This document shows positions 31,081 through 53,981 of a stretch of 64,000 nucleotides of DNA, in pieces. Source of the DNA: a virus; the IMG/VR virus record IMGVR_UViG_3300033402_000312; one strand, written 5' to 3'. Position 1 is the stretch's first letter; each line of letters begins with the position of its first letter. Made by a program: the position numbers and the translations under genes. The notes under the pieces are model-generated. The model did not search any database. It was not told where the DNA came from and saw only the letters and a list, made by a program, of their open reading frames with translations.

Positions 31081-34000
31081 ATGAGCTTGCTGGACAAAAA
31101 GACGGCCAAGCAGTACGAAAACGCCAGTACGCAGATCAACGTGCCCCCGGAGGTCGCCGCCGAGATCGCCCGCATAGGGAAGAAACTGATCCCGGACGGG
31201 CACCTTGCAGGCGACGGCAGAGTTGAAGTTCTGCATGTCACAATAAAGTACGGCGTGCAGCCGAACGAACACGTCCTCCAGCAAGCCTTGGCTGGGCACA
31301 AATCCTTCGAGGTTGTGCTCGGAAAGACCACGATATTCCCCGAGGCGAGCACCGAAGCCACCCCGGTGGTGATCGAAGTCCACGGTCATGAGTTCGAGGC
31401 GCTCCACGAGACAGTCGCTGCTGTCATGGGCATCCTGCCCGACGACTTCCCTTACACCCCGCACATCACCATCGCCTACGTCAAGCAAAAAGAAGCGCAG
31501 CACTACGCCGGGAAGGACGACTTTGTCGGCATCGAGTTTGTCGCCGACGCCGTAACCCTGTCCATATTCGACGACGACAACCAGGTTGACGTCCCGCTGG
31601 CGAAAGCCGCCGCAGAGGCTATCTTAGGAGGGAGAAACACAAAAGCGTGGCTTCTTCCCAACGGTAGATTCCAGACATGGGAGTTTATCGAGCATCCTTT
31701 GGTAGAACCTGAGATGTCACCCGCCATCCGTGTTGGGCGAGGTCCCTCGGGGCATGCTTACGCCCAGATAACAGAACCGCCGACTAACGCCCAGATGAGC
31801 GCCCTCGCAGACTTGGACAAGTTCGAAAAAGGATTATTCGTTGAGATCAAAGATAAAAACTCAGATACCGTGTATGAGGGCGTCCCCGTAAGGTTTTCTG
31901 AAATTCGTCATGCGGTGAACTCTGCTTTTCCCAAAACTGCCGCGTCCCCGGCTGTAATGCCCGAAATTCCCGAGGTTGTGCCGCAGGTTCCGCAGGAACA
32001 GCCTGAAGACGAGGAAGAGGTGCAGCGCGACGAGCCTGCCACGGGAGAGAAGCGGGAGGAACCGAAGCGCCAAAGGCAGCCGAAGAACAGGCTCCTCCGG
32101 CCGAAGCAGCCCAAGCAGAGGGCACCGAAACCCCCCGTCCAAACCACGAACTTCAAGAGGTGGTTCGGCAAATCCAAGGTGCGCGACGACAGCGGCAAGC
32201 CGCTGGTGGTCTACCATGGCACGACGCATGATTTCGAGGCGTTCGACCCGAGCCAGGGCAACGTGGAGAACCACTACGGCAGGGCACTGTACTTCACGTC
32301 CTCCAAGACCGACTTGGCGGAAAACTACGCGACAGAGGCGGGGCCGGACATCACCCAACGCATCGAACTGACCGCCGAGCGCATCTTCAACGACTTGCAG
32401 GAGGAGTGGGACGAGGAGCACCCCGGCGAGGAGTTCCCGCCATACAGTTCGGACGAATACCAAAAGTTAATGGAAGAAGCGAGGCAGCAGGCGAAAAAGC
32501 AAATCGCTGGGCAGAGCCAAGGCGTGAGCATGCCCGTCTACCTCAGCCTCCAGAACCCGGTCGTCGTGCAGAAGAACGGCGGCACCGGGTTCGAACTCAA
32601 CATCGACGAGGACGGCAACGAGTCCGGCAGCGCATTAACCCTGTACCACGCGATGTTGCGCGTGGCAGGAAACTATCACCATACTGATGCGCAAGAAATA
32701 TGGGTCGATCTCATCGAACATAACGGCGAGTCGTTCAATGCCTGGGATTTCGAGCGGCAAGTTCGCAACGCGGGACATTACGTTGAGGACGACGAAGGGA
32801 ACCTGGCAAGCGGCAGCTTCATCGCAGATGTTTACCGAGAGATGGGCTTCGACGGCATCATCCAAGACGCCTACGCCGAGTTTGGGGTCGGTCAATACGG
32901 CAGAATGAAGATGGAGCCGGGCACGAAGCACTACATCGTCTGGGACCCACGCAAGGTCAAGAGCGCCATCGGCAACGTGGGCAAGTTCGACCCGGCGAAC
33001 CCCAGCATCACGGCCGCGAGCAGGCAGTACCCCGCCACGGAAGAGTGGATCGGCAGGGCGAAGAAGTTCCTGAGGGAAAAGTGGGCGCAGCGCAACGACG
33101 AAATGGGGCGCGGAGAAATTCCAAGCAACCTTGAAGGCGCGTGCAAGTTCGCGTCGCTGTTCGCCAAGGAGCTTTTCGGCGGCAGGATCGTCGGCAACCC
33201 CGAACACCAAGTTGTCCAGCACGTGTACCAGATCATCGACTTGACCGACCGATACGACCCGAATACGTTCCGCCACGACAAGGAATGGTTCGGGAACCCC
33301 GAGCATCAGGAATCCATGCAGTCTTGCATGCCCCGCGTGAAACAGTGGGCAGAGGAGTTCAGGCAAAAGCACCCGCTTGAGTCCGAGACCGATGCTAAAC
33401 TCGCAAGCGACTACCACCGAAATGTCGGCTGGCTCCTGCATGACGGCAGCTTCAAGCCCCTAATCAAAGGCGAGAGCCACCGCGAGGGGGCTGTGCGCCT
33501 CGGGCTTTCAACCGACCCGCAGGACATGACCGAGGCTTTCGACAAGGGGGCCGTGCGGGTCAGCGGGAACCAGTATACGAGCCTTGAGTTCAAGATGCTG
33601 TCGCCGAACATCGCTTCCCTGCTCCTGGACTTCATCCTACAAAAACGCAGCGACGCAAAGACAATCACCTTCGACTGGTTCAGGCCGCGACGGGCAGAGC
33701 AGGAATTCAACAGCGTGGACGACGCCGTCGAGTGGCTGGACAACCCGTTCGCCGTGATGGCTTCCGCCAAATCCGCCGCTGGCTTTAACAAGCGCGTTAT
33801 CAGCATCGACGACCTTCCGGGGGAGGCGAAAGCCGACTTGGCGGCGGAGATCGCCGAGCATCTGACCGCCATCGGATTCCAGCCCCCGTGGCAGGAGAGC
33901 GGGGCGGTGGAGGCCAACGACCTGCGCCCGGAACTGTTCGACCTCGCCGACCCGCCGCTGGTCACGGTGTACGACGCCCCGGTCGAAAGCCTGCACAAGA

Positions 34001-40000: not shown

Positions 40001-42036
40001 TTGCGCTTGGCAGCCTGCATACCCACAGCGGAGAGGGCGGAGGCGAACTCAGCCCGTGGGACGAGGAAGAAGGGCAGAGGGTCGCCAACGAACAAGGCTC
40101 CTCTTACTGGATGTTCGTCGTCGGCCCCAATCCGCTGAGTGAATCTTCCGATATACCAGGCGTGGTCATGGTGAACGACTTTTTCGAGCCTGAGACGCAG
40201 GTCAAGAAGGGTGCGCTTGAAGGCGTGGAGTACAGGGTCAATGTGCTGGATTCGCACGGCGGCGAGCTTTTCTGCACGGCTGAGGCTTGGCTGAACGGCG
40301 AGCGCGTCGGCACGGTGGACTTCAACGAATCCGAGGCGGATGTTCCTCTTGAGGACACGCGCTACTACAAAGAAGTGCAGGACGAGTACGGTGCAAAGGA
40401 GTACGAGCGTATCGCCGAAATTCCGAAGGAAGTTTGGATCAAGCATGTGTGGGTCGAGCCAACGCACCGCCGCAAGGGCATAGCCACGGGTATGTACGAG
40501 AAGATCAAGCAGGAGTTCCCCGGCGAGAAGATCGTGAGCAGCGGCACGACCCCCGAGGGCGGCGAGTTCCGCAAAAAGCTAAAAGAGCACGGCGTGCTCG
40601 CGCATAAGATGGCGGCAGACATGCCTGCCTTGGCGAGGTCAATCCAAGACGCTATTGAGGAGGCGGGACAGAAAATTCCTCGCACTAACTGGGAGGAATG
40701 GCTCAGGAAAGCGAAAGCACGTCTCAGCGAAAGAACCGGAGTGGAAGCTGATGATCTGCTTGACGACGCTATCACGGAAGCCGTAGTGAACGCACTGTTC
40801 AGGGATAACTTGGCTAAGAGATACGACCCAAGCAGAGGTCCTAGCAACTACCTGACATTCGTCCTCGGAAAGAGGGTAATGAGCGGGGGTGAAGAGTACC
40901 TGCAAAGAGAAGCGAGACAGCAACCGGAAACAATGCCGCAGGAACGTTCCGATGAAATAGAGCTTGTGGAAAACAAAAAAGACGCACAAAAATTCGTTCG
41001 CGCTTTCGGAGAATGGCTTGCAACTTTCTGTAGCAAAACACTTATGGGTTGCAAGCCTGCCGTAACCCAAAAAAGAATTTGGTTGTTGTCAATGGTGATG
41101 AAGTACGGATATCCGAAGCGAAGGGAATTAGTCGGCCCTTGGCAAAAGACATTCAATCTCAGTCTTGGAGCACTGAAAGGGTATCTCGGCGAATTGAAGA
41201 ATCTCATGAGGGAATTTGCAAGGACAGGCGGGGCTTGGGCAGAAGCCGCTGGTGCAGTCTCGTCCCTGCTAGCCAAGGAAGCTTCGTCCAAGGAGTTCAA
41301 GACCGCCCGACTTCAAAAAAACGCTGTGTACGCCGAGGCGCAGAACCAAGTCCAGCACACCGACCACGAAGCCGTGGGGATGACCAAAACGCTGAAGAGC
41401 GACCCGTTCGCCGAAGAGATGGAGGCGCTGCACAAAGACCTCGGGCAAGAAGTGCCGGAGCCGAACCCCGCCATTACGCCCAGCAAGGGCGAGGGCCAGC
41501 CGCAGGCGAAGGGCGAAGACCAGTTGCAGCTTCAGCAAGCCCAGAGGATGCAGCAGGCGAGCTTGCTAGCAGCCAAGAAACCCCTGCTCGAATCCTTGGA
41601 AGCCCTGCGCCCCGCCTTCGTCAAGGCGGCGCAGGAGGCATACGAGAACGGGCCGGAGCACGAATGGCAGGGCGTCTGTTATTGGGTCGCCTCAGCCATC
41701 TTGGAGGAGGCGCTGTCGCACAACCCAGGCTGGGGCGGAAAGGTCGTGGACTGCGGCGAGCACCACTCGTGCGCCGTCGTTTGCGACCGCAAAGAATGCT
41801 TCAGGGTTGACATTCCGTTTGCAAAGTACGAGAAGCTGATCCCGAGGGAGGAGAAGCCCGGCAACAAGGCGTACGACTACGACATGCCTTGGAGCTTTGA
41901 GACAATCGGCGACGTGGTGTTCAAGCCTGAGGACATCGAGATCGTGCCCACCAAGCGCCCGAAATGGGGCAAGAAAAGCAAGAAAATGGCTAATGACCTG
42001 CCATCGCTTGAAGAAGTGTTGGCAGAATTGGAATAG
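31081..42036 (+). CDS. giant polyvalent multidomain protein 1 (about 3,651 aa)
   Basis: Uninterrupted 10.96-kb ORF. Motifs read in order: 2H phosphoesterase (HVTI/HITI); ART/Tpt1-like (VVYHGT); Cys/His module; ParB-like (DGGHRLEAYYRAGRKTIPV); HExxH (IAHELAHH); GNAT (RQGLGTELL); second ART-like (LYHGTS...GIYLT); second ParB-like (DGAHRLAAIHELGIPV); JAMM-like (HTHSGEGGGELSPWD); second GNAT (HRRKGIATGMYE); C-terminal Cys/His module. Confidence 0.85.
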   Translation: MSLLDKKTAKQYENASTQINVPPEVAAEIARIGKKLIPDGHLAGDGRVEVLHVTIKYGVQPNEHVLQQALAGHKSFEVVLGKTTIFPEASTEATPVVIEVHGHEFEALHETVAAVMGILPDDFPYTPHITIAYVKQKEAQHYAGKDDFVGIEFVADAVTLSIFDDDNQVDVPLAKAAAEAILGGRNTKAWLLPNGRFQTWEFIEHPLVEPEMSPAIRVGRGPSGHAYAQITEPPTNAQMSALADLDKFEKGLFVEIKDKNSDTVYEGVPVRFSEIRHAVNSAFPKTAASPAVMPEIPEVVPQVPQEQPEDEEEVQRDEPATGEKREEPKRQRQPKNRLLRPKQPKQRAPKPPVQTTNFKRWFGKSKVRDDSGKPLVVYHGTTHDFEAFDPSQGNVENHYGRALYFTSSKTDLAENYATEAGPDITQRIELTAERIFNDLQEEWDEEHPGEEFPPYSSDEYQKLMEEARQQAKKQIAGQSQGVSMPVYLSLQNPVVVQKNGGTGFELNIDEDGNESGSALTLYHAMLRVAGNYHHTDAQEIWVDLIEHNGESFNAWDFERQVRNAGHYVEDDEGNLASGSFIADVYREMGFDGIIQDAYAEFGVGQYGRMKMEPGTKHYIVWDPRKVKSAIGNVGKFDPANPSITAASRQYPATEEWIGRAKKFLREKWAQRNDEMGRGEIPSNLEGACKFASLFAKELFGGRIVGNPEHQVVQHVYQIIDLTDRYDPNTFRHDKEWFGNPEHQESMQSCMPRVKQWAEEFRQKHPLESETDAKLASDYHRNVGWLLHDGSFKPLIKGESHREGAVRLGLSTDPQDMTEAFDKGAVRVSGNQYTSLEFKMLSPNIASLLLDFILQKRSDAKTITFDWFRPRRAEQEFNSVDDAVEWLDNPFAVMASAKSAAGFNKRVISIDDLPGEAKADLAAEIAEHLTAIGFQPPWQESGAVEANDLRPELFDLADPPLVTVYDAPVESLHKTLDRKYDPGDGVVRKYVEMLKSGVEFDPIFVNNGEFSDGGHRLEAYYRAGRKTIPVAEIGPFLNAPAEFWQRWLSGDENAKFAAFPKTALNVPRLVKDFGQKLVARAERDHSAPTVPPPRPGAEPATREQQVEQRATTLVNSIAQSDPSPNKEYTAWIVGNYARGGINRWEDIKSRAIPALKRFNTLKITRKLPLEERDIMKVKGMKGLEDLMEKYKEVEAISETQKEKEVEAAFFQNGGAAMVHDDPQIKVVTPKTKEAACFFGINTRWCTSAQNSYNYFESYNKKGPLYIVLIKANNQRFQFHFETESYMDERDNAVDPWDLTSQYPVLKKIFQPVVLGFMRNNANIRASFVAFVEKPTTEMMLAAVDEDPSAIDHFPNAPQEVKWRAFCRRMGFSEENYDKKLKGFVVAEYENVEEFAEERGNDTAKWAAGISSGKEDWDSDGSGFEASTVLDACKPTTIAEINEYIKFHHDASLQPWLKANEETFPLDASKIEQFMTDEGLDDVEDKLRSGWYSGEESGAQDEVIGAFKSALTDINRSTTENGTVIVFDQANMWDSKVLEILPLAEAENMVKENPGDTDLWDSSDRYHENEILKVEQPYYGFSGFSEEACNERISEEFYISDKERKERAGQQPELPLAAPAKKKRRKTKASLLEKRGVREKSVDDLGLAKKVMRELIPVLGEQLPEPELKVVNQPRAGWLGRDTWRVGIQNGKPTWGDNTTIELQAYILNDENTLRRIIAHELAHHADALVNGVEEMKKVNDKWTYKWFLRENRGRGHGMTWKQYAQKFNAKYGADFVTEKSDESYVTEEQELRPYHILLKRDYDGKLAYEVSSRISPKMKRILDRMASNKDGTEYRLTQTNDRDFYEGQLISSYYWNHPKEPEKQAKLEALWEKGQRVLPTGTAKEQDELVRLWNEAKERSKARGKAKVSDAHSDRAKTFPDADAFLKEHYTGFIPSNAYDSKDWSMWKREDFPVLLKTFTLKDGTEVELRKTGEPNKYTKVDESGEIVRDTGGLATYLSPEEVKAKGLPETDTAIFAFIMDGDCVGQASDEWGADGVWVAPQIQRQGLGTELLTELRKQFKPTRQMGQMTPAGREMAKKYYNNLLLKEAAVPQLQELQHGVSKDYDRVRWVYQQFLDSRVRSMPWQDFQKRFPWAQNSPLFTEVRQNRPRITTEDMERWMDEYDAKAKEYQNYEIEHGTYRDKETSFRDVEQLVLKVNQSASAREIVGEDPMMKEFLGQVAQGSAQSGHPAGESTVGWLRVDFIDDDWLLVDEVQSDLINAMELGKRFLAEPTLESLMSKYKSETVKQKIRDMGATEQTFQMSKREMVRRGYTVEKLEEMKRQLVNLFKDWAEYGIASLIEIARRHGIRNVAIHTGETVARRDPDLEADKAGMYYDRLAKSFGFRKQPLDVGDLKGTFWVRTASAKMPKHLYHGTSESNIAKILKEGIKIKHVRQASDGIYLTDNPSKAAEYSDSSEVLRIDTKALDSNKLRPDSDDLQAFWEEHLSEAEKEQYGNSANVPWQAVVHDLTQITYVGDIPPEAIQVIRVKTAGKRDEDVGDLKGNFWVRTASKTSPVTWEEVKKHITKTNPHEGARDAWGGMSVELPNLAWAKELIQPNDPRLDWSNLHPASKRDIRRYIKFHEKSENQDWYRGFPAVILTLENGRLFVQDGAHRLAAIHELGIPVEAYVGRQQESKQAGKRDEATTSMTVGTTDPSFPMPVLIRWEQGMRWRQVLKAVKAIVGEIAGRRVPWREIHIWASLWENQQVQQEGWATERAIGNRVMYDILHNGSFVSVGKQVATATGAEPEPEYVGNCTEDEVVAQYFGDATRLAQAIENGEKRSETEVFDPTSNLLIKYDPATDVHSFYKTADSHKVTPLDETYYNSPESGEETNAYADVPERVRGIYDVPPLKELAPQLFEKDAAGKKYPFAAVKRVADRWFRKNWRTVQSGWGDQVSYEVGFTIYLDQNGKVQMTKLAQGDTAEVEIPAPPEGCIALGSLHTHSGEGGGELSPWDEEEGQRVANEQGSSYWMFVVGPNPLSESSDIPGVVMVNDFFEPETQVKKGALEGVEYRVNVLDSHGGELFCTAEAWLNGERVGTVDFNESEADVPLEDTRYYKEVQDEYGAKEYERIAEIPKEVWIKHVWVEPTHRRKGIATGMYEKIKQEFPGEKIVSSGTTPEGGEFRKKLKEHGVLAHKMAADMPALARSIQDAIEEAGQKIPRTNWEEWLRKAKARLSERTGVEADDLLDDAITEAVVNALFRDNLAKRYDPSRGPSNYLTFVLGKRVMSGGEEYLQREARQQPETMPQERSDEIELVENKKDAQKFVRAFGEWLATFCSKTLMGCKPAVTQKRIWLLSMVMKYGYPKRRELVGPWQKTFNLSLGALKGYLGELKNLMREFARTGGAWAEAAGAVSSLLAKEASSKEFKTARLQKNAVYAEAQNQVQHTDHEAVGMTKTLKSDPFAEEMEALHKDLGQEVPEPNPAITPSKGEGQPQAKGEDQLQLQQAQRMQQASLLAAKKPLLESLEALRPAFVKAAQEAYENGPEHEWQGVCYWVASAILEEALSHNPGWGGKVVDCGEHHSCAVVCDRKECFRVDIPFAKYEKLIPREEKPGNKAYDYDMPWSFETIGDVVFKPEDIEIVPTKRPKWGKKSKKMANDLPSLEEVLAELE

Positions 42037-42906: not shown

Positions 42907-44383
42907 TTGCTATCTTCTTCACTTTGATCGAGGCCTTCCCCATGGTGCTCAAGCCGAGACAAGGCACTATCTCGGGTTCAGCACTGCTCCCGAGGAACGC
43001 ATCGCGCAGCATTTCAGCGGCGAGGGCGCACGTTTAATGCAAGTACTTTACGAACGCGGAATCACTTTCACTGTCGCCCGCATCTGGAACAACTGTGAAC
43101 GAAAGTTTGAGCGGCGCTTGAAGAGCCAAGGCGGACTCTCTCGTCATTGTCCAATTTGCCTGAATCTGGGATTGATTCCCACTTCACGGGCACGAAGCAA
43201 GGCTTTAAGTGACGTGCAACCTGTCCCCAAGACCATGCAGCCCAAGACGGCCGCTGGCGCTGTGGACATCGACTGGGAGACCGGCATGTTCGAGAACTAC
43301 AAGCTCGTCCCAAAGTACTCGTACCACGAGTACGGCGACCCAATCGACGAGGACGAGGCGATTGGCGAATTGAACTGGAACATGCTGGTCGTGAGCGTGT
43401 TCGACACCGCCAAGGAGCAAAGGGGAAAGCCGGGCAAGCAGGTCGGCGAAGCCGACTTCGTGCTGCGCGGCGGGCGGCTTGAGTCCGCGAACACCGAAGT
43501 GGACAAGAGCTACTGGAGGCGGGGCATAGCCACGGCATTGTACCAGTACGCCGAGAGCTTGACCGGATTCAAGACGAAGCCACACTCGACGCAGTCCCCG
43601 GAAGGACGCGCCCTGTGGCAGCAGGGGAGCAGGCCGTTCGGCAAGTCCGGCTCGGACAAGCCCATGATGGAAATGCACCGCAAGGGCGCTGTTGTCTGGA
43701 TCGACTGGTTCGAGGTTCCGGCGAGCCAGCAGGGCAAGGGCTTAGGCAGGAAGTACTACGAGGCGTGGGAACAAAAGCTGCCCAAAAACGTGAAGCTTGT
43801 TCGGCTGTTCGCAGGTAATACGGACACCGGAGAAGCGTCGGGCTTCTGGGCAAAGATGGGCTTCGAGAATGTATTCTACGACGAAGAAAGTCAGTACAGC
43901 TTCTACATGTGGAAAGGCGTGAACGGCAACCCGACGCCGCCGCCGATGGATTCCCCCGACGAAGACCCCGGCTACGACGTCGAGGACGAACCGGAGAAGA
44001 CGGCGTCCAAGACGGCTGCAAACCGTGTGAGCGGCGAGGACGTGGTCGCTTACGTCATGAAGCTCAACGAGTGGGACAGGGACACGGCTTATCAGGTCGT
44101 GGGGCCGGACGCCGGGGGCGACTACGTGCTGCGCGACTTCCCGCTCAGCAAGCTGAGCGCAGGGGACGATTACGACCCGGAGCAAGCGGAGCAGTACTCA
44201 AGAATGGAGGGCCCGCTCCCGCCCATCGTGCTGGGGCTGGAGTCTAGGGCGCACCGCGACAAGCCGGAAATGGTGACGTACTATGTCATCCGCGACGGGA
44301 ACCATCGCGTGGCGGCGGCAAAGCTGCGCGGGGATAGCAAGATCAAGGCGTACGTCCCAGCGGACGCTACGAAGGTTAAGTAA
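42899..44383 (+). CDS. GIY-YIG-like / GNAT / ParB-like multidomain protein (494 aa)
   Basis: N-terminus YLLHF...HYLGFS...RIAQH (GIY-YIG-like). GNAT-like SYWRRGIATALY and QQGKGLGRKYY. C-terminal YYVIRDGNHRVAAAKLRG (ParB-like). Confidence 0.7.
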   Translation: MSSCYLLHFDRGLPHGAQAETRHYLGFSTAPEERIAQHFSGEGARLMQVLYERGITFTVARIWNNCERKFERRLKSQGGLSRHCPICLNLGLIPTSRARSKALSDVQPVPKTMQPKTAAGAVDIDWETGMFENYKLVPKYSYHEYGDPIDEDEAIGELNWNMLVVSVFDTAKEQRGKPGKQVGEADFVLRGGRLESANTEVDKSYWRRGIATALYQYAESLTGFKTKPHSTQSPEGRALWQQGSRPFGKSGSDKPMMEMHRKGAVVWIDWFEVPASQQGKGLGRKYYEAWEQKLPKNVKLVRLFAGNTDTGEASGFWAKMGFENVFYDEESQYSFYMWKGVNGNPTPPPMDSPDEDPGYDVEDEPEKTASKTAANRVSGEDVVAYVMKLNEWDRDTAYQVVGPDAGGDYVLRDFPLSKLSAGDDYDPEQAEQYSRMEGPLPPIVLGLESRAHRDKPEMVTYYVIRDGNHRVAAAKLRGDSKIKAYVPADATKVK

Positions 44384-44384
44384 A

Positions 44385-47300
44385 ATGCGCTGGTATCACG
44401 GCACAAGTCGGCAGAACGCCAAAAAAGCCCTCAAGGAGGGCATTCTCAAGCCGGGGGAGGACTCCATTTATGACGTGGACGTCCCGCGAGATGATGCCGT
44501 ATACATAACTTCGGAATACCAAATCGCCAAATACTACGCTGAAGAGCATAGTTGGCAGGGCAAAGGCGGCGTGGTCTTGGAGGTTGCCGCCAACGAAGGC
44601 AGCTTGATGCCTGACGAGGACGCAATTTACGACGCCCTGCATGAGGGCGCTGTGGTGCTGGGCGAGAAAAGCAGCAAAAAGCTGGGGCAGGCGATCCGCA
44701 AGGCATGGCTGAGGCACTGGAAGTCCATCGAAGGCGAAGGCGACACGTTCGAAGAGGCATGGGAAGCGTGGGGGAATGTGGAAGCCGAGGGTTCGTCGGG
44801 GATCGCCGAAGAGATGAAGGAACTGACTGAGGAAATCCATAGGGAGAACCCGGCTCTGTCCAAGGCTATCATCGAAGCCAGCGGCAAAGCTGCGCACATC
44901 GGGCCGGTGAAGGTCATGGGCATCGCCAAGAAGCAAACCGCAAAACCGGACCTGTCAAACGATCAAGAGCCTCTGGAGGCGGCGCGGCAAATGCTTGCGG
45001 AGCTTGGCGGAAACGAGAAACTCTGCGGAAAAAGCAAAGTCGTGCATGGGTATTGGATCGAGACCCACACGCTGGGATGCCGCAACGCCGCAGACGAGCC
45101 GGAAAGCGAGTGGGAAGCCAACCACAAGCGCATCAGGGACGAATACGCCAACGACGGCGTCAGTATCGTCCTGGACGACAAGAATTCCAGCAACTTCGCG
45201 ACGGTGACCCCGCAGTCCAAGACCGCAGCCAAGAAGGTCAGGGTCGTCAAGACTCCGGGCTTCATGATCGAAGTGCCGCAGGAACGTCGCAAGACGTTTT
45301 TCATCCGCCCGAAGACCCCGCTGGAGTACTGGGCTTTCAAGAACCGCCCCCGCGTCTTCGTGAACGAGCCGCTTATCTTCACGTTCGGCGGAAAGCCCGT
45401 GGCGGAAGCTGTAGCCGTGAGGGTCGAGGCCCCCGGTCGCGGCGAGGGCGAGTACAGGCACTGGCACAAGGTGTACTGGAAGCCCACGAGCTTCAAGAGG
45501 TTCCGTATAACTGCGTCTGAGCGACCCGGAGTGTTGTACCACATCAGCCGCCGCACCAACCGCCAGTCCATCCTGAAGAACGGACTGCTGCCGTTGCTCA
45601 AAGAGTACAAGGATGTAGAGCGTGCGCCGGGAATCTATTTCTTCCAGAGCATCGACGCCGCGAAGGACTACGGCTTCTACCACGCGCAGCATGTCAACCA
45701 AGCTCTCGACATCTGGGAATGCCGCATCCCCGAAGGCTACGAGGTGCGCCATGACCCGCACCCGGAGATGGACGAGTTCGATGCGTGGATGAGCCATGAG
45801 CCGCTGCCCCCGGAAAACCTGAAAGTCGTGGACACGATCCTCGTGCCGAAGTCCACTGCCGACGCGCCTCCTCCCTACAAGAGCCAACGCGGCGACAAAT
45901 TCAAGAGAATGTATGAAGAGCGAGTCCGGGAATTTGCTTACCGGGGCAAAGGTGCTGCTGGGAAACCAGTTCCATGGAAGTCCGACCTGCTGCGCTGGGA
46001 CAGGCTCACCGCGTGGGAAGACAGGAACACCGCGAACGACGATGCCGAGTACACATCCGAGGAGATCGAGGAGAAGTACAGACTCGCGCCGCCCAGCGAG
46101 ACGCGCAGGGGCGTCAACGCCGCGCTGCTCAAGTCCGCCAAGGCTAATTTCCCGACCTTCGAGCAGGTGATCGACAAAAAGACCGACACGAACAACGAGT
46201 TCGAGATTGACATGTGGAAGGGCGAGGAACTGGGAAACAGGCGCAAAGAGTACGACGAGTTGCTCCGGCAAATGAAGGCGCTGAAGTTCCCGCTCACGGT
46301 GTACCGCTGCTTCGCGCTCAAAGAGGGCGAAAAGATCGACTACAGCAGCCTCGGCGGCTCGTGGTCTCTCAACAGCCGGGCAGCGTACTTGGTTTCCCAC
46401 GAACTGTTTCCCGACGACGAGGGCTACGACTACAAGACCGTCGCGGGCACCATCCAAAGCCCGGATGCCGTGGACTGGCTCAACACCATGCGTGCCTGGC
46501 TGACCTTGCCGGACGAGGAGGAGATCAGGCTGAAGCCCGGCGCGAAAGTCGGGGTCCGGGGGAAGACCCGCACCGCAACCGGCAAAAAATTCTATCACGG
46601 TACGAAAAAGAAGAACCTTGACGACATCCTGAAAAACGGTTTGAAGGTCGAGATGTCCGAGGCGCACACCGAATGGGGCAGGGCAATCTACCTAGCGTGC
46701 GATGCCTACACCGCCGCGAACTACGAGGGCATGCACGGAGGCGGCGAGCCGTGGGCGATCCTTGAGATCGACGGCAGTAAGCTGAACGAATACTACATGC
46801 GCCCGGACGACTACGACTTCCCCGACCTCTGGGAACAAGCAGGGCGCAAGGAGAACTGGGCGCACCAGACATGGCAGACGAGCCTCAAGGTGTCGTGCCA
46901 GATCGCCTATCTCGCCGACATCCCGGCAAGCGCCATCAAGGTGCATCCGTACAAAAAGAACAATGTTCCGGCAAAAAATACGCAAAAAGAGTTTCTCGAC
47001 AGCCACACCGTGGAGCAGGTCGCGGAGCACTTCGGCATCACGCCCGCAGCCGCAGCCAAGGCGAAATCCGAGGGCATAGTGAAGAAAGCCGATATGACCG
47101 AAGACCCCGACTACTACATGACAGAAGGCTGCGGCATCTGGGCGGTGGACTTCGCCCGGAAGAACGGCGGGGAGATATACATCCTGTCGGCGGAGCGCGG
47201 CGAGGAGTGGAGCGAGGAAATCCCGTACGAGGTCACGCACGCCTTCGTGAAGAAGGACGGCAGGACCTACGACGTCCGGGGCGAGCGGACGCCCGACAAG

Positions 47301-50300
47301 ATGGCCTGGGAGCTAAGCATGGGCGAGTACACCGTCAAGGGGCCGTGGACGCCCGACGAGTTCGAGGCCAAGTTCATGGGCAGCACCGACGATAAGCCGC
47401 TGTTCGGCAAGGAGAGTGCCAAGACCGCGACGATGCCCCCTCGCGGGCGGTTTATGTGGCACGTTACCCCAATGCGTAACGTACCCTCGATCAAAAAGAA
47501 CGGGCTGATTCCGCAAGTGGGCGAACGCAGCGCCGAAGGGGGCGAGAAGCCAGGCATCTTCCTCTTTCCGACAAAGCAAGGAGTAGAGGATGCCCTTACT
47601 GGATGGCTCGGCGAATCCTTTGAGAACACTCCCGAGGAACTGGCTATCGTTGAAGTAGCTGTGCCAGAAGATGTTCAAATGGAGGATTCCACTGATTACA
47701 CCACTCAGTTCGAAGTGGTCATCCGTCAGCCGTTGCCAGCGAACTACATCCGCAGGATATACACGGAAAAAGAGTTCGAAGACCACCTTGCCCGAATTGC
47801 CTCCAAGACCGCCGACAAGGTCATCGGCGTGGGCGAAGGGGACGAGTACTGGGCGGGAGAGGGCAACGCCGCGTCCGGCGTGCTGCCCGTGTGCCCGAGC
47901 AAGGGCACGGTGTGCCTCGCGTGGAGAAGCCCCTATGTCATGAGTCCCGACTGCTGGGGCACCATCGGCGGGGCGGTCAAGAAAGGCATGAGTCCGCAGC
48001 AGAGCGCGAAGACCGAGATGGCGGAGGAGACGGGGTACCACGGCGGGATCAGGCTGATTCCCGCGTACACTTTCTTGGATCGCGGCTTCAAGTATTTCAA
48101 CTTCGTCGGCGTGGTGCCGAACGAGTTCCCGTTCAGCCCCGGCGAAGGGCACGGCTGGGAGACCGACCACATCGCGTGGGTGCCCTACGAGCAGGTCGTC
48201 AAGGACATGCAGGAGAACCCCGGCGACTACCATCCCGGCTTGCTCAAGCTGTTCGCCAACTCCAAGGACGCCATCGAGCGAGCGCTGAAGATCAAAAAGC
48301 AAGGAGCCATTAAGACTGCCTCTATTGATACCAACGGTTGGATCACCCCCGATGGAGACTGGGAACCGCTGGAAGACGGAGAAACTCATGTCAACGCAAT
48401 CCAACGCCTGCTAAATCGCGACGATGTTTTTGAAAAAGATGGATTGAAAGAAGGATATATCCGAGTTCATTACCAGGATTACGTGCCCGGTCAACCCATC
48501 GAAGCCTACTTTCTTTGCGAAAAACGCACGTCACACAATTTTGCCTTGGTCAGGGAAGCGATCCATGATTTGCCGTCTCAGACTAAGCAAGTAGCGGTCG
48601 TGTTCAAACATCCCGAAGATTATCAAACATACACGTTTGAGGAGGCACTGGAGGATTTCCCCCGCCGTGCTGTTTTCGCGGCCGAGAAGCAAAGCGCCAT
48701 CGTGAGACGCGGCGCGTTCGACCCGTTATGGATGAAGCGCTGGGTCGAGGGCGGCTGCTGGCTGTTTGCGCTGGCTTTGCAGCCTCTCATCCCCGGCTCG
48801 GTGTTCGTCGGTCTCGCTAGAGAAGGCGAAGTCCTTGAGCACGTCGGCGTGCGCAAGGGTGACAGGTACTACGACGTGCGCGGGGAGATGGACGAGACCG
48901 AGTTCAACTACGGAGCCGACTCCGAGGTTCCTCTCCATATCGTGCCCGTGGACTACGAGCAGGTGATGAGGGACGGGGAGTACGGAAGCTGGCTCGGGCA
49001 CGAGGACGAGTTCGAGACCCTGCCGGAGATGCAGGCGGCTAAGGAAGCTGTGCAGAAAGTATTCGGCAAGGGCAAGACCGCAGAAGTCAACCCAACAGCC
49101 CCACCGCCAAGTTCCAGCCGCCTCCCGTGCCCCAGCGGCAAGCGCAAGTTCTACGACGAAGTGTCGGCAATCGGCCCCCACAAGCAGTGGAGCAAGGGCA
49201 CGCCGAACCTCCGCGCCTACAAGTGCCCGATATGCGGCTGGTGGCACCTGACGAGCAAGCCGCAAAGAGTGACGGCGAACCTCCATGGGATGGGGACGTT
49301 CTATCACGGGACATCATGGGCAGAGGCAGACCAAATCAAGGTCGAGGGCCTCAAAGCCCACCCATGGGCTTTCAACGACAAATCGTACGTCTGGTGTACG
49401 CTGATCGAGCAGCTTGGCATCAGCTATGGGGAATCCAAAACGGAGAATAGCTCAGAACCCGGATACGTCGTAAGCTTCGAATGGGATTACGACCAAACGG
49501 AACCCGACCCCGAGCATGGGGAAGAGTATGAGGACGTATATCGTCGCATCGAGGGCGACGTGCCAGCCTCCGCCATCACCGGCATCAACTATTACGCCCC
49601 GGATCACAGGCTTGTGAAGACAGCAGCCGGGCAGAAGCAGGCGGATGCCGCCTTGAACGACTTCTTGGCAGGCAGGATTTCCAAGGAAGAGTACAAGGCG
49701 ATGCTCTCAGGGGAAAGCCAGCCGGAGCAGGCACCGCAGCAACAGCACTTGTTCCCGTCTTCGCAAGACGCAAAGTTCAAAGCTTGGTTCGACGGCTCGA
49801 AGGTCGTGGACAAGAACGGGAACCCGATGCCTGTGTACCACGGCACGCGCTCATCCGTGGAATTCGAGGAGTTCAGCGTCGAGGGCCCGCCACAAACAGA
49901 TTCATACGAAAATGAAACCACGTCTTCCGGCTCCGGTGCAGACCCGACCGCGTTCCTCGGCGCTCACTTCGCTGAGGAAACAAACGTCGCCAACCTGTTT
50001 GCCGAGGGCAAGGGCTGGACGGGCGTCCGCTACGAGGGGGAGCAGCCCAAGCCCCGCGTGATACAGGTTTTCCTGCGGATCACGAATCCGAAGGACTTCG
50101 GCAGCGAGCACAACCTGCGCGAGTTCATTAACCAAGGCAAAATCGCCGACGATGAGGTGACCAATCTCGTTATGGAAAATCGTGACGGGATTAACTATTG
50201 GGAGCCAGAGCAAGAACAAGCGGCGCAGGAGTGGGGTGAAAAGTATGAGAACGATCAAGCCTTCCGCACTGAAGTCAACCGTTACCTGTGGGAGCAGCAT

Positions 50301-53300
50301 AGCACGGGATCAGAATACGAAGGTGAACAGGACAGGTTAAATTCCGCTGCCTACGATCTCGCTATGCAGGCACGGAATCGTCTGACCACCGCTGGTTATG
50401 ATGGGGTTCGCTATAAGAACGTGGTCGAGGGCGGTCACGCATGGATCGCGTTCGCGGCGAACCAGATCAAGAGCGTCTATTCCCAGTTCAACCCGAAAGA
50501 CCCAAGCTTCACCGCTTCCAAAGACGCAGCAACCCATACGCCAGAATATGCGCAGAAACTTGTGGAAGCGCTGAAGCAGACCGTCACGGACGCAGACTTC
50601 CGGGTTATCGGCTCCGTGGGAGCCGGGCAAGAATCCGAGAACGACATTGACATCATGGTGGACATTCGCCCGGATGCCGCCTTTAAGGACGATCAAGCTT
50701 GGATCGACACCAGCGGCCTGACCGGGGCGATGAAGCTGCTGGGCTTCGACTACCTCGGGCCGTCCGATTTCGCACCGGGGGAAAGCGCGGAGAAGTCCGA
50801 GGCGAGCGGCAAATACCTCGACCCGGCAGGCTCCGGCGTCGAGAAGTTCTTCAACCCGACGACATACCACACGGTCGAGTTCTGGTTCACCGAGTCCGGC
50901 ATGCCGAAGGAAGCGGATTGGAGGAGCAAGTACGTGCTGCCGACAGCCCTTGCGTTGGGTCTCGGCGCTCCGTCCAGCGTGCACCCCGACGAAGTGACTC
51001 CGCAGCAAATCGAGCAGGTGCGCGAGGAGCAGGCGAAAAAGCGGATCGACGCCCTCGTCGAGGCGATCTCCCGCGCCGAGGGCGCTAAGCCGGAACTCAA
51101 CAACCCCGGCAACCTCGTGGACTTCAACACGGGCAAGATCAGGACGTTCGATTCGTGGGAAGAGGGCCGCAACGCGTTGGCTGAGCAGCTTGAGCGCATC
51201 GCTGACGGCGACCACCCGAACATCAAGCCCGACATGACGCTGCGCGAAGCCGGGCTGGTCTACAGCAACGGCGACCCGAACTGGGCGAAAAACGTCTCGC
51301 GCATCATGCGCGTGCCGGAAACCATAAAGATGCAAGAACTCGTCCGTGGACGCACGGAAGAGGCGGGCGTGGCTGCGACGCCTTCCGGCAAGATAGGATG
51401 GCTCAGGAAGGCTGCGGGCTTCGCGTTCAAGTCCTTCAAGAAGCTCTGGCACGTCGGCAGCATGAACCCCAAGGACAAGCGGCCCGGCTCGCTGGAGGGC
51501 GTCGGTCTCAGCGTGAGCGTACATCCCGAGGAGTGGAAAGGGATCGCGGAGATCGGCGGCCCGACATGGGAACTGACCAAGCCGGGCAACAAATTCCTGA
51601 ACTTCTACCGCCTCAGCAAGACGCAGCGCAAGCAGATCGCCGTGTGGGGCGTCGCGAACGGCTATGCCACCGAGGTCGCCATCGGCTGGCGCTGGTATTT
51701 CACGGACGCCGAGACCGACGAAGAGCGCTACATGGAGTTCGAGACCGAGCAGGAAGCCCAAGAGGAGATGGAAGGTCAAGGCATAGGCGAGGTGCGCCCG
51801 GCGAAAGGCTCCAGCATGAAGGGCACGGAAAAGCTCAAGCAGCGCACCAAGAACCCGAAGGCGGACGATATGGTCGTCGCCTTCGACTTGCTTGTCACCG
51901 TGTATGCCGAGGATGAGCTTGACTGCGACGGCGTCTGGTGGGAAGACATCTTCGATCCCGCCTCCCTGTCCGCGCCTCGCGGCGTAATATTCCCTGGAAA
52001 ATTGTCATCATGGAAAAAGAAGAAGGTCGAAGAAGTAGATGACGAAGGTGCTGCACCGATCAATAGGGAAATCGATATGCTGGAGCAGGAGATCAAAAAA
52101 CACGGCGACCCCACCGGAATGCTGACTGATCACCTGAAAATGCTCAAGCAGAAAAAGTCCGGCGCAGCGAAGACCGCAGCTAGGCTTGCTGCCTACGACC
52201 CAGCCCGTGCCGCGCAATTTTCTGTTAGGGTTATCAAACATCCCACCAACCCCAACATGTTTGATGTGCGAGCCGTGGACGTAGGTAAGGGGTGGGCGGG
52301 GACGGTTTCCGTTACACAGAAAGGCAAGGATTTCTATGTCACTCAGTCTGTGCTTTACAAGCCCTACCAAGGCATTGGTTTGGGGTCCCGCTTGTACGCC
52401 TGGGCGATGGATGAGGCCGAAAAGCGGGGCGGTGAACGTTTTTGGTCTGACGTAGAAGTCAGCTTGGACGCTCAAAAGATTTGGGAACGGTTGGACGCCG
52501 GTTTTGATGAAGAAAGCGGGAGATTTTTTATCCCGTTGATGGCCACGGTCAAAACCGCAACCGCAGAGTTCTTCCGGGACTCGAACGGGGTGCTGTGGGC
52601 GAAAGACCCCGCGCTGTCGCCGAACCCCGTCTCCATCCCCAACCGAATCCCTGAGGGCGAGCGCGAAGCCTACGTCGCCGAAAAGCTGAGGCAGCAGGGC
52701 GAGATGGACGCTGCCCTTAAAACTGAACGGGCGAAAAAGAACCCGGCGAAAAAGAACCCGTGGCAAGAGTGGAACCACGGGCTTGGTACAGTTGACCCAA
52801 CGGAGGTCGTCAAGAAGCTCGAAGCGGAAGGCAAGGAAGTCAAGGTGCGGCTCATCCCCTTGGGCTATTACAAGATTTGGTTCAGGGACAAGACCGCAGC
52901 GAAACCCAAGCCCAGCCCGACGCAGGTCGCCGCGCTGCAAGGCATGGCTGCGGGCGACGGCACCATTCACCGGGAGAAGGGCGGCTTCTGGATTTGGGGC
53001 GACTACATCGTCGGTTGGGACAGTCTTGGATTGCCTATCTTCAAAGGCGAGGAGGAAGGCAGGCATCTTGAGCCGCGCCCGTGGGTTGACATCCGCACCG
53101 TGCGGGCGATGGAGTCTCGCGGCTGGGTGAAGCGCACGAACAAATTTCCTGAAGAGTGGAGAGATAACCGTAAAATAACGGACGCTGGGCGTGCGCTCAT
53201 CGCAGGCAAGACTGCCGATCTTGACGAGGATGATGACATTTATGACCAGCCTGTTGAGTACTTTGCCCACAGTGCGTGTTGGCTTTACGCCTTCGCGCTG

Positions 53301-53981
53301 CACAAACTCACAGGGCTGCCGATGGTATCAATCTCTGATCCCCACGAAGGTGTTATTCATGCCGCCGTCGAGCGTGAAGGAAAGCTTCTGGACTCTAAGG
53401 GCGAATTCACGCTTAAGCAAATCGGAAAACGCTATGGGCTGAAAAACCCGTTCACTCTTCCGTTGACCGAAGAAGGTGTGGAGTATTTTTACGGCATCAA
53501 CGAGCACGAGCTTGAACGGGCGATGGAAGTTGCCCGCGAGCAGGTCAAAAAGCTGGGCATTAAGACCGCAGCGGCAGAAATCTACCTGTACCACGGCACC
53601 TCGGAAGACAACTGGAACGCGATCATGGAAGCCGGGGGTGTGGTTCCCGCTGGAAGCTGCTGGGGCACCGAGCGGGTAGCCGAATACTACGCAGAGGACC
53701 GCGCTGAGGCGCAGACGAACGACGCCATCTACAACGAATTGGGCACGCGGGTTGAGGAGGCTATCATCCGCGTCCCGCTTTCGCGGTTCGACGAGACGAA
53801 CCTCAAGCCGGACGGCAACTCCGTCGCGGAGCCGTTGACTTTCACCTTGCAGCGTAGCGAAGAAGACCTTTATGCTGACTGGCAGAAAGCCGGGGGCACA
53901 TGGCAGGATTCGCTCCGCATCTACGAATCCGTGCGCTACGACGCGCCCATGAAAGTCACCAAAAAAGACCGCTACGTATAG
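44385..53981 (+). CDS. giant polyvalent multidomain protein 2 (about 3,198 aa)
   Basis: Start MRWYHGTS one codon after the previous stop. Seven YHGT-type ART/Tpt1-like modules. Three Cys/His modules (GCGIWAVDFA, GGCWLFALAL, SACWLYAFAL). Nudix (WGTIGGAVKKGMSPQQSAKTEMAEETGY). MNT nucleotidyltransferase (GSVGAGQESENDIDIMV). Possible GH73-like (AEGAKPELNNPGNLVDF). GNAT (QGIGLGSRLYAW). Confidence 0.85.
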   Translation: MRWYHGTSRQNAKKALKEGILKPGEDSIYDVDVPRDDAVYITSEYQIAKYYAEEHSWQGKGGVVLEVAANEGSLMPDEDAIYDALHEGAVVLGEKSSKKLGQAIRKAWLRHWKSIEGEGDTFEEAWEAWGNVEAEGSSGIAEEMKELTEEIHRENPALSKAIIEASGKAAHIGPVKVMGIAKKQTAKPDLSNDQEPLEAARQMLAELGGNEKLCGKSKVVHGYWIETHTLGCRNAADEPESEWEANHKRIRDEYANDGVSIVLDDKNSSNFATVTPQSKTAAKKVRVVKTPGFMIEVPQERRKTFFIRPKTPLEYWAFKNRPRVFVNEPLIFTFGGKPVAEAVAVRVEAPGRGEGEYRHWHKVYWKPTSFKRFRITASERPGVLYHISRRTNRQSILKNGLLPLLKEYKDVERAPGIYFFQSIDAAKDYGFYHAQHVNQALDIWECRIPEGYEVRHDPHPEMDEFDAWMSHEPLPPENLKVVDTILVPKSTADAPPPYKSQRGDKFKRMYEERVREFAYRGKGAAGKPVPWKSDLLRWDRLTAWEDRNTANDDAEYTSEEIEEKYRLAPPSETRRGVNAALLKSAKANFPTFEQVIDKKTDTNNEFEIDMWKGEELGNRRKEYDELLRQMKALKFPLTVYRCFALKEGEKIDYSSLGGSWSLNSRAAYLVSHELFPDDEGYDYKTVAGTIQSPDAVDWLNTMRAWLTLPDEEEIRLKPGAKVGVRGKTRTATGKKFYHGTKKKNLDDILKNGLKVEMSEAHTEWGRAIYLACDAYTAANYEGMHGGGEPWAILEIDGSKLNEYYMRPDDYDFPDLWEQAGRKENWAHQTWQTSLKVSCQIAYLADIPASAIKVHPYKKNNVPAKNTQKEFLDSHTVEQVAEHFGITPAAAAKAKSEGIVKKADMTEDPDYYMTEGCGIWAVDFARKNGGEIYILSAERGEEWSEEIPYEVTHAFVKKDGRTYDVRGERTPDKMAWELSMGEYTVKGPWTPDEFEAKFMGSTDDKPLFGKESAKTATMPPRGRFMWHVTPMRNVPSIKKNGLIPQVGERSAEGGEKPGIFLFPTKQGVEDALTGWLGESFENTPEELAIVEVAVPEDVQMEDSTDYTTQFEVVIRQPLPANYIRRIYTEKEFEDHLARIASKTADKVIGVGEGDEYWAGEGNAASGVLPVCPSKGTVCLAWRSPYVMSPDCWGTIGGAVKKGMSPQQSAKTEMAEETGYHGGIRLIPAYTFLDRGFKYFNFVGVVPNEFPFSPGEGHGWETDHIAWVPYEQVVKDMQENPGDYHPGLLKLFANSKDAIERALKIKKQGAIKTASIDTNGWITPDGDWEPLEDGETHVNAIQRLLNRDDVFEKDGLKEGYIRVHYQDYVPGQPIEAYFLCEKRTSHNFALVREAIHDLPSQTKQVAVVFKHPEDYQTYTFEEALEDFPRRAVFAAEKQSAIVRRGAFDPLWMKRWVEGGCWLFALALQPLIPGSVFVGLAREGEVLEHVGVRKGDRYYDVRGEMDETEFNYGADSEVPLHIVPVDYEQVMRDGEYGSWLGHEDEFETLPEMQAAKEAVQKVFGKGKTAEVNPTAPPPSSSRLPCPSGKRKFYDEVSAIGPHKQWSKGTPNLRAYKCPICGWWHLTSKPQRVTANLHGMGTFYHGTSWAEADQIKVEGLKAHPWAFNDKSYVWCTLIEQLGISYGESKTENSSEPGYVVSFEWDYDQTEPDPEHGEEYEDVYRRIEGDVPASAITGINYYAPDHRLVKTAAGQKQADAALNDFLAGRISKEEYKAMLSGESQPEQAPQQQHLFPSSQDAKFKAWFDGSKVVDKNGNPMPVYHGTRSSVEFEEFSVEGPPQTDSYENETTSSGSGADPTAFLGAHFAEETNVANLFAEGKGWTGVRYEGEQPKPRVIQVFLRITNPKDFGSEHNLREFINQGKIADDEVTNLVMENRDGINYWEPEQEQAAQEWGEKYENDQAFRTEVNRYLWEQHSTGSEYEGEQDRLNSAAYDLAMQARNRLTTAGYDGVRYKNVVEGGHAWIAFAANQIKSVYSQFNPKDPSFTASKDAATHTPEYAQKLVEALKQTVTDADFRVIGSVGAGQESENDIDIMVDIRPDAAFKDDQAWIDTSGLTGAMKLLGFDYLGPSDFAPGESAEKSEASGKYLDPAGSGVEKFFNPTTYHTVEFWFTESGMPKEADWRSKYVLPTALALGLGAPSSVHPDEVTPQQIEQVREEQAKKRIDALVEAISRAEGAKPELNNPGNLVDFNTGKIRTFDSWEEGRNALAEQLERIADGDHPNIKPDMTLREAGLVYSNGDPNWAKNVSRIMRVPETIKMQELVRGRTEEAGVAATPSGKIGWLRKAAGFAFKSFKKLWHVGSMNPKDKRPGSLEGVGLSVSVHPEEWKGIAEIGGPTWELTKPGNKFLNFYRLSKTQRKQIAVWGVANGYATEVAIGWRWYFTDAETDEERYMEFETEQEAQEEMEGQGIGEVRPAKGSSMKGTEKLKQRTKNPKADDMVVAFDLLVTVYAEDELDCDGVWWEDIFDPASLSAPRGVIFPGKLSSWKKKKVEEVDDEGAAPINREIDMLEQEIKKHGDPTGMLTDHLKMLKQKKSGAAKTAARLAAYDPARAAQFSVRVIKHPTNPNMFDVRAVDVGKGWAGTVSVTQKGKDFYVTQSVLYKPYQGIGLGSRLYAWAMDEAEKRGGERFWSDVEVSLDAQKIWERLDAGFDEESGRFFIPLMATVKTATAEFFRDSNGVLWAKDPALSPNPVSIPNRIPEGEREAYVAEKLRQQGEMDAALKTERAKKNPAKKNPWQEWNHGLGTVDPTEVVKKLEAEGKEVKVRLIPLGYYKIWFRDKTAAKPKPSPTQVAALQGMAAGDGTIHREKGGFWIWGDYIVGWDSLGLPIFKGEEEGRHLEPRPWVDIRTVRAMESRGWVKRTNKFPEEWRDNRKITDAGRALIAGKTADLDEDDDIYDQPVEYFAHSACWLYAFALHKLTGLPMVSISDPHEGVIHAAVEREGKLLDSKGEFTLKQIGKRYGLKNPFTLPLTEEGVEYFYGINEHELERAMEVAREQVKKLGIKTAAAEIYLYHGTSEDNWNAIMEAGGVVPAGSCWGTERVAEYYAEDRAEAQTNDAIYNELGTRVEEAIIRVPLSRFDETNLKPDGNSVAEPLTFTLQRSEEDLYADWQKAGGTWQDSLRIYESVRYDAPMKVTKKDRYV

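Follow-up and report, generated by a model that had tools for sequence, protein, structure and literature searches.

Why should two giant viral proteins carry the same short sequence motif over and over again? The question is raised by a locus in IMG/VR virus record IMGVR_UViG_3300033402_000312, of which we analysed a stretch of 64,000 nucleotides (nt), hereafter the window. Two of its genes encode the proteins that we call P1 and P2, in which a first-pass annotation, made from the letters of the DNA, had noticed at least nine YHGT-type modules and had compared them with ADP-ribosyltransferases (ARTs) and RNA 2'-phosphotransferases of the Tpt1/KptA type. We find exactly nine, seven in P2 (modules A to G) and two in P1 (H and I). 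We consider it probable that P1 and P2 are polyvalent proteins, injected into the host, whose nine ARTs depend on nicotinamide adenine dinucleotide (NAD) and act on differing host targets.

Nine modules in three groups

All motifs listed in the first-pass annotation are present, and the start coordinates given there agree with the located motifs to about 30 nt (Table 1). P2 has five YHGT where 0.018 are expected and P1 has two where 0.006 are expected, counts that none of 500 shuffles reached. When all six-frame open reading frames (ORFs) of the window were searched with profiles of the three module groups, no tenth copy was found. The first copy stands at the very beginning of P2: the gene starts at the ATG at 44385 (M35 of the mechanical ORF 44283..53981), one base after the stop of the upstream gene, so that MRWYHGTS is the P2 N-terminus. 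The second part of the pattern, G-I-Y-F/L, is represented in A, B, C, D, E, H and I by an aromatic residue that falls in a predicted strand. It did not hold in F, which has His (GAHFA) where H has Tyr, nor in G, where S-x-W-G-T places a Trp within a shifted motif.

The nine copies are not one uniform repeat, and on their sequences we sort them into three groups. F and H are long forms and match the Pfam family ART-PolyVal. A, C, E, G and I, of about 115-190 amino acids (aa), can be aligned with one another and are here called mini-ARTs. B and D are DarT/Tpt1-like and have the strand-1 motif YH[IV][ST]. Pairwise BLAST aligns C with I at 33.6% identity over 134 aa; it also joins C with G, G with I and B with D over their full length, and A with I over the N-terminal 44 residues. 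Comparison of the module families by hhalign, each of them shallow (5-13 sequences), gave 96.9% for A-C, 97.5% for A-I, 94.7% for A-G, 96.2% for C-G, 97.1% for G-I, 94.5% for E-I, 87.6% for C-E and 84.1% for A-E. B and D were paired at 96.9%, B and I at 83.5%, and the long forms F and H at 99.2%. The merged alignment of A, C, E, G and I matched that of B and D (95.8%, E-value 7e-9, 123 columns), so that, broadly taken, all seven short modules form a single family.

All modules are assigned to the ART superfamily

We assign all nine modules to the ART superfamily, with its split beta-sheet fold, from sequence comparison in the case of A, B, C, F, G, H and I and from predicted structures in that of D and E. 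Four exceed the Pfam cut-offs of ART clan members: F and H with ART-PolyVal (PF18760, cut-off 31.2; F 61.9 bits over profile positions 1-134 of 140, H 67.6 bits), C and I with PARP (PF00644, cut-off 26.7; C 29.0 bits over positions 52-99 of 199, I 33.0 bits). The PARP matches of C and I extend over no more than about positions 50-103 of the profile. Module I also matches ART-PolyVal (E-value 1.1e-4, 23.4 bits) and PTS_2-RNA (0.004). The other short modules fall under the PARP cut-off or have no match (B 0.046, G only 0.11-0.13). D reaches DarT at 0.093, E and A alone have no Pfam match, and scans of the family members of A and G were marginal only. A, B and G are tied to the fold by profile-profile comparison (84-97%) together with merged-profile matches to the PDB.

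Searched against the PDB, the merged mini-ART profile matched Tpt1 (2.2e-6), exotoxin A (3.4e-4) and then PARP1/3/10, diphtheria toxin and cholix toxin; 60 of 60 chains among the matches listed are ARTs. The nearest characterised relatives are those that the first-pass annotation had named. Single-family profiles gave weak but consistently ART matches (E to Tpt1 at 0.36, G to Tpt1 at 0.47, A to the PE-like toxin 9g7o at 0.083), significance for A, E and G being reached only after merging; the profile of B and D found Tpt1 9ld3 at 4.8e-4.

AlphaFold (AF2) models were made for the two least certain modules, E and D. For the model of E (predicted local distance difference test, pLDDT, 88.1; predicted template modelling score, pTM, 0.82; 9-sequence alignment), the top Foldseek matches in the PDB were the Rhs ART toxins TreX/TreTu of Xenorhabdus bovienii (PDB 8s2m, 8s2n; PMC11606950), at an E-value of 1.9e-5 and a template modelling (TM) score of 0.74 over about 125 columns. 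These are compact ART toxin domains of about 130 aa that are delivered into bacterial cells; they differ from module E in sequence (13-14% identity) and in being the C-terminal tips of Rhs toxins of the type VI secretion system, with immunity proteins, rather than internal phage modules. Cholera toxin A1, Tpt1, and pertussis and pertussis-like toxins were further matches. Among predicted viral structures the model matched many small jumbo-phage proteins, five of them from Bacillus phage G, and others annotated as DarT, RNA 2'-phosphotransferase or PARP catalytic domain, some of the matches lying within 'structural' or 'head morphogenesis' proteins. The model of D (pLDDT 84.6, pTM 0.78; 13 sequences) matched KptA 9ldg (3.4e-4), DarT1 8baq (4.6e-4) and pertussis-like toxins; it also matched the minimal ART-like CC0527, RES and ParT toxins, with moderate TM scores of about 0.5. 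Only ART-fold chains were among the matches of the two models. Pfam, the merged profiles and the models thus bear out the superfamily first proposed; the searches pointed to no unrelated fold, nor did the copies prove unalignable.

A signature of His, aromatic residue and Asp

Conservation was counted over 274 aligned instances of the mini-ART family. The His of YHGT is kept in 99% and its Thr in 95%, the following helix keeps an Ile (95%) and a Gly (99%), and strand 2 keeps an aromatic residue (90%); the Ala of an A..Y motif is kept in 93%. An Asp in L-x-P-D, which falls after strand 3, is present in 225 of the 226 instances in which the column is occupied. At the position of the strand-5 Glu of PARPs and diphtheria toxin, an alignment-based reading gives Gln in C (CQIAY) and I (TQITY), Tyr in E, probably Lys in A, and a variable residue in G; nowhere in the mini-ART family is that Glu a conserved residue. 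The signature of the modules therefore appears to be His/aromatic/Asp and not the H-Y-E triad that had been suggested for them. Their likeness to PARP, diphtheria toxin and exotoxin A lies in the strand-1 His and the strand-2 Tyr; they differ in that only about positions 50-113 of the 199 of the PARP profile are matched, and they are roughly half the size.

Module B keeps the Asp of L-x-x-D, and F and H keep that of G-[YF]-D-G in ART-PolyVal. In D the Glu of QFE-VVI immediately precedes a predicted strand, and in A a helical insert of about 90 aa precedes the last strand (GKAAHIGPVKV). The strand-1 His is kept in all nine modules of the window; since this is the NAD-site His, none of them looks an obvious dead copy.

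Modules are shuffled among giant phage proteins

With the whole of P2 as query we found 22 homologous giant proteins of 1961-5245 aa. Homologous giants have between 2 and 6 mini-ARTs (2-6 each). Every module turns up again in 3-9 of the other giants, where its position differs; D alone has no close orthologue there. Module A has nine orthologous copies in other giants, N-terminal in five and internal in three, and module G has five. Recurrence at differing positions indicates that the modules are autonomous, shuffled units. Relatives of 105-210 aa also stand alone, among them P0024-P0026 for E and P0028-P0032 (105-110 aa) for D; a homologue search with the E family yielded three new proteins only. 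At 105-140 aa, the free-standing homologues that keep the His, the aromatic and the acidic residue rank among the smallest proteins of the ART fold.

Against 1.84 billion cluster representatives, the merged profile matched 5,266 proteins at an E-value of 1e-3 or less and 404 at 1e-10 or less. The best 150 of these matches comprise giants in which 2-6 stretches match and about 54 free-standing proteins, 123-210 aa long (counted among P0039-P0178). Ten free-standing relatives were all marginal in Pfam (PARP, PTS_2-RNA, ART-PolyVal or DUF7002), four of them just over the PARP cut-off, and none of the ten matched a dedicated Pfam model. These comparisons place the short modules in an uncurated family, large and common among huge phages.

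P1 and P2 themselves, as far as their predicted domains go, fit the definition of polyvalent proteins, a class that the first-pass annotation had not recognised: many functionally unrelated effector domains in one polypeptide of a phage or conjugative element, here in an order that is shuffled among the 22 homologues. Among the protein-modifying domains of such proteins ARTs are by a wide margin the most frequent, in one to twelve copies per protein; they have a His in strand 1, a Tyr in strand 2 and an Asp in strand 5, and they group with Tox-ART-HYD2 (Iyer, Burroughs, Anand, de Souza and Aravind, 2017; PMC5512222). Multiple ARTs in one phage polyvalent protein are thus an already published phenomenon (PMC5512222). 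Common to the published proteins and to ours are the giant multi-effector polypeptide, several ARTs per protein, conservation of the His/Tyr/Asp type, and the co-occurrence of NUDIX, GNAT, InPase, nucleotidyltransferase, ParB and zincin-like peptidase domains (PMC5512222). F and H are members of ART-PolyVal, a Tox-ART-HYD2-like clade (PMC5512222), by the Pfam cut-off. The seven short modules differ in staying under it, module I being the best and the other six having no ART-PolyVal match at all, and form a separate minimal family for which Pfam has no dedicated model; P2 differs in uniting three ART sub-families in one protein.

The wider context is that of a phage. When 55 ORFs of the window were scanned, 48 PHROG families were matched, including an RNA ligase (Table 1), a Clp-type protease ATPase, a helicase, endonuclease VII and several phage-only families of unknown function. 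The 3198-aa protein that is identical from P2's Met (P0001) is recorded on five contigs, the longest of 894,233 bp. If it were one phage genome, that contig would exceed the largest phage genomes that we know of; it could alternatively be a misassembly or a cellular genome with a prophage. Homologues of P2 also occur on contigs of 447,784 and about 190,000 bp.

A tripeptide at the domain boundaries

The tripeptide K-T-A (more loosely [KR]-T-A or x-T-A-[AS]) stands at most domain boundaries of P1 and P2, often 5-10 residues before YHGT. It occurs 11 times in P2 where about 1 is expected (z about 11) and 6 times in P1, again with about 1 expected. Counted over 69 related proteins, each 1000 aa or longer, it occurs 226 times against 47.5 expected, concentrated in 17 of the proteins. 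Homology blocks common to P2 and other giants end at K-T-A sites, and the E family ends in an invariant V-K, which T-A follows both in P2 and in the free-standing P0024.

Processing by a protease at K-T-A is one possibility, a conserved linker another. Autoproteolytic processing by zincin-like peptidases has been proposed for polyvalent proteins, in a paper from whose text the word 'linker' is absent (PMC5512222). The zincin-like HEXXH domain of P1 is a candidate for the processing protease. A joint reading is possible, if doubtful: P1 and P2 would be polyproteins, cut at K-T-A by this zincin-like protease or by a prohead protease into about 25 effectors, nine of them ARTs, and the mini-ARTs would be a previously undefined family with catalysis by His, aromatic residue and L-x-P-D Asp in place of the strand-5 Glu, its paralogues aimed at different host proteins or nucleic acids. 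Were K-T-A a cleavage site, the proposed proteolytic processing of polyvalent proteins would become testable by virion mass spectrometry.

Other domains and neighbouring genes

Besides its ARTs, P2 contains NUDIX, GNAT and YunG-like domains, a pol-beta-type nucleotidyltransferase motif and a zinc ribbon. P1 opens with a 2H phosphoesterase and contains ParB-like motifs, a SprT/zincin-like HEXXH, two GNATs (three across both proteins) and a JAB-like HxH...SxxD motif. The NUDIX domain of P2 is a candidate pyrophosphatase of ADP-ribose or NAD derivatives; the name that JGI gives to the P2 protein includes 'ADP-ribose...' among its functions.

P1, a GIY-YIG ORF, a GNAT ORF and P2 follow one another as four genes that abut or overlap by a few bases. 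The GIY-YIG ORF sits between P1 on one side and the GNAT ORF and P2 on the other, with no more than a few bases to spare; possibly it is a mobile element whose insertion divided a still larger polyvalent gene. Immediately before P1 comes the InPase-RelA/SpoT ORF. Its InPase portion resembles stretches of large phage proteins that carry the annotations minor head protein, virion structural protein or DarB-like antirestriction protein, and this ORF may belong to the same injected effector set as P1 and P2. A further ORF ends in a domain that matches the C-terminal domain (CTD) of the alpha subunit of bacterial RNA polymerase. The alpha-CTD is an ADP-ribosylation target of T4 Alt and ModA, and a phage alpha-CTD-like protein encoded beside so many ARTs could act as its substitute or as a decoy. 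The HNH endonuclease-RNA ligase fusion, the 2H domain of P1 and the Tpt1-like modules could together form a theme of RNA repair or of action against cyclic nucleotides. No tRNA genes were found in the window. A megablast of the P2 DNA against 50,697 phage records gave zero matches, so that these records offered no annotated close relative to compare.

Table 1. Features of the window discussed in the text, in order of position (nt); the last column gives the start of the YHGT-type motif
Feature	Position	Strand	Protein part	Motifs and matches	Motif start
HNH endonuclease-RNA ligase fusion	14963-15973	+		Pfam 1.4e-30; PHROG RNA ligase 6e-117	
ORF with C-terminal domain matching RNA polymerase alpha CTD	24044-25225	+	393 aa	PF03118 5.2e-6, above cut-off	
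InPase + RelA/SpoT fusion ORF	29272-31002	+		InPase-like 3.8e-27; RelA/SpoT alarmone synthetase 4.4e-13	
P1, predicted giant polyvalent protein	31078..42036	+	3652 codons, about 3651 aa		
2H phosphoesterase	about 31144-31569	+	P1 aa 23-164	2',5' RNA ligase / Acb1-like, E-value 0.0026	
Module H, long-form ART-PolyVal	32098..33027	+	P1 aa 341-650	FKRWFGKSKVRDDSGKPLVVYHGT, GRALYFTS, GFDGIIQ	YHGT 32212
ParB/sulfiredoxin-like motif 1	34111-34137	+	P1	DG[GA]HR	
HEXXH of SprT/zincin-like metallopeptidase domain	36229..36249	+	P1	AHELAHH; Pfam SprT-like E-value 8.7e-4	
Module I, mini-ART	38278..38664	+	P1 aa 2401-2529	HLYHGTSE, GIYLT, LRPDSD, TQITYVGDIPPEAIQV	YHGT 38311
ParB/sulfiredoxin-like motif 2	39025-39051	+	P1	DG[GA]HR	
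JAB/MPN-like motif	40018-40062	+	P1	H-x-H...S-x-x-D (HTHSGEGGGELSPWD)	
K-T-A in P1	31099, 31933, 34258, 38662, 39619, 41299		P1		
R-T-A in P1	38278, 38719		P1		
GIY-YIG / homing-endonuclease-like ORF	42037-42906	+		Pfam 1.3e-5; PHROG homing endonuclease 1.6e-7	
P2, predicted giant polyvalent protein	44385..53981	+	3198 aa from ATG 44385		
Module A, mini-ART	44385..44945	+	P2 aa 1-187	MRWYHGTS, AVYI, LMPDED	YHGT 44394
Module B, DarT/Tpt1-like ART	45501..45914	+	P2 aa 373-510	VLYHISRR, GIYFF, conserved Asp in VRHDPH	YHIS 45537
Module C, mini-ART	46572..46988	+	P2 aa 730-868	KFYHGTKK, AIYLA, MRPDD, CQIAYLADIPASAIKV	YHGT 46593
Module D, minimal ART (modelled)	47424..47807	+	P2 aa 1014-1141	FMWHVTPM, GIFLF, QFEVVI	WHVT 47457
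NUDIX domain, between modules D and E	47871..48215	+	ORF aa 1197-1311	Pfam PF00293 E-value 8.5e-9	
Zinc ribbon, before module E	49128-49247	+	P2	CxxC...CxxC	
Module E, mini-ART (modelled)	49275..49619	+	P2 aa 1631-1745	TFYHGTSW, YVWCT, EPDPEH, YRRIEGDVPASAI	YHGT 49302
Module F, long-form ART-PolyVal	49725..50534	+	P2 aa 1781-2050	FKAWFDGSKVVDKNGNPMPVYHGT, GAHFAEE, GYDGVRY, VVEGGHAWIAF	YHGT 49836
Module G, mini-ART, P2 C-terminus	53565..53978	+	P2 aa 3061-3198	IYLYHGTSE, SCWGT, LKPDG	YHGT 53589
K-T-A in P2	45219, 47421, 47805, 48312, 49074, 49617, 52170, 52551, 52890, 53208, 53562		P2		
R-T-A in P2	46569		P2		

Discussion

The explanation that we favour is that P1 and P2 would each string together some 15-25 autonomous effector domains, would be packaged in the virion and would be injected with the DNA, by analogy with T4 Alt and the Dar proteins of phage P1. 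T4 Alt has been taken as the working model for polyvalent-protein ARTs (PMC5512222), a view repeated in a 2022 survey (PMC9503650). The likeness to T4 Alt is one of function: it is a head-packaged ART that is injected with the DNA and modifies host RNA polymerase and other proteins (PMC5512222). It differs from our modules as an R-S-E ART and a single-domain protein, and we claim no sequence relationship. The chain of P1 or P2 may be cut into separate effectors by proteolysis. Each module most likely binds NAD+ through its strand-1 His and strand-2 aromatic residue, and early in infection each would ADP-ribosylate its own target among host proteins or nucleic acids. The strong divergence of the paralogues (20-35% identity) fits differing substrates. 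ADP-ribosylation would serve host takeover and counter-defence, while the NUDIX and 2H domains may process ADP-ribose or nucleotide by-products or host signals, and the GNATs may take part in related nucleotide chemistry.

Several observations weigh against this explanation. The five mini-ARTs lack the classical catalytic Glu of strand 5. No capsid, portal or terminase gene was found in the window, and virion delivery is therefore proposed by analogy only. The SprT-like match of the candidate protease scores 19.6 bits, under the Pfam cut-off of 25.6. The assignment of A and G draws on profile-profile comparison of families of 5-9 sequences and on weak Pfam and PDB matches, and the results for A-I and A-C are not independent, family I having members in common with family C. 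An alignment of all copies, as the first-pass annotation had envisaged, succeeded among the seven short modules and between the two long ones; short against long forms were not significant by hhalign (12% or less), and the two sets are joined solely through the Pfam clan and the common YHGT motif.

The short modules might instead be enzymes of the Tpt1/KptA type that do not modify proteins but transfer ADP-ribose to nucleic-acid phosphates, removing RNA 2'-phosphates or capping 5'-phosphates in phage RNA repair. They resemble Tpt1/KptA (PF01885; PDB 8tfi, 9ld3) in the YHGT of strand 1, the I..G helix, the hydrophobic strand 2, strand 3, a C-terminal (D/x)(I/V)P...I strand and the lack of a catalytic Glu; Tpt1 is the best PDB sequence match of both the merged profile and that of B and D, and Tpt1 and KptA are among the structural matches of E and D. 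The window also encodes the HNH-RNA ligase fusion, a 2H domain opens P1, and 2H-KptA-ligase is a known phage repair route (PMC9503650). Set against this, the modules match the NAD-binding lobe only: PTS_2-RNA is covered at profile positions 90-158 of 177, its positions 1-89, the RNA-binding lobe, are never aligned, and no single module exceeds 17.7 bits (cut-off 26), the 35.7 bits of the whole of P2 being the sum over several copies. The N-terminal lobe of Tpt1 carries most of the Arg-His-Arg-Arg tetrad. Full Tpt1 enzymes are rejected because the lobe is absent, and the proposed Tpt1/KptA membership falls with it. The modules also have an invariant Asp instead, occur in multiple copies inside giant proteins, and include one, E, whose best structural match is a protein-modifying Rhs toxin; one housekeeping repair step would hardly explain seven diverged copies in a chain. 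We therefore regard a Tpt1-type activity as unlikely.

We also think it improbable that some or all mini-ARTs are NAD+ glycohydrolases, or binders of NAD or ADP-ribose derivatives, that sequester or destroy host immune signals or NAD. The missing canonical Glu and the very small size of the modules (105-140 aa) would suit such a role, as would the linked NUDIX and Acb1-like 2H domains, which degrade nucleotide signals, and conflict systems do contain ART-fold NADases (PMC9503650). The invariant His, aromatic residue and Asp suggest catalysis over mere binding, however, and the nearest structural neighbours (TreX/TreTu, cholera toxin, Tpt1, DarT) are true transferases.

The 'toxin or antitoxin repertoire' of the first-pass annotation, with modules of the DarT/DarG or ParT kind, is very unlikely. 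B and D resemble DarT (PF14487; PDB 8baq, 7omu) in a strand 1 without Gly, followed by N..SI...GL, and D matches DarT1 by structure, yet with a poor alignment (root-mean-square deviation 9.7 over 177 columns); RES and ParT toxins are among its distant matches. The DarT score of D is 12.9 bits against a cut-off of 22.5, and the modules lie inside two polypeptides, each longer than 3000 aa, rather than forming two-gene cassettes. A Pfam scan detected no Macro, DarG or other antitoxin domain in P1 or P2, and identical module types shuffle among phage polyvalent proteins. Chance or low-complexity recurrence without common ancestry, which has nothing but the shortness of the motif in its favour, is ruled out for practical purposes by the shuffles, the full-length alignments and the agreement of profiles and structures.

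If P1 and P2 are, as we favour, injected polyvalent proteins with nine ARTs, they bear on phage-delivered ARTs as a main route of host takeover and counter-defence. To our knowledge, almost no phage-delivered ART outside T4 Alt, ModA and ModB has a known target. Nine diverged ARTs in one operon, several of them of 105-140 aa and all with their NAD-site residues preserved, would offer a compact panel on target choice in minimal ARTs, and a curated Pfam model for the mini-ARTs, with their 5,266 cluster representatives, would improve the annotation of huge phages.

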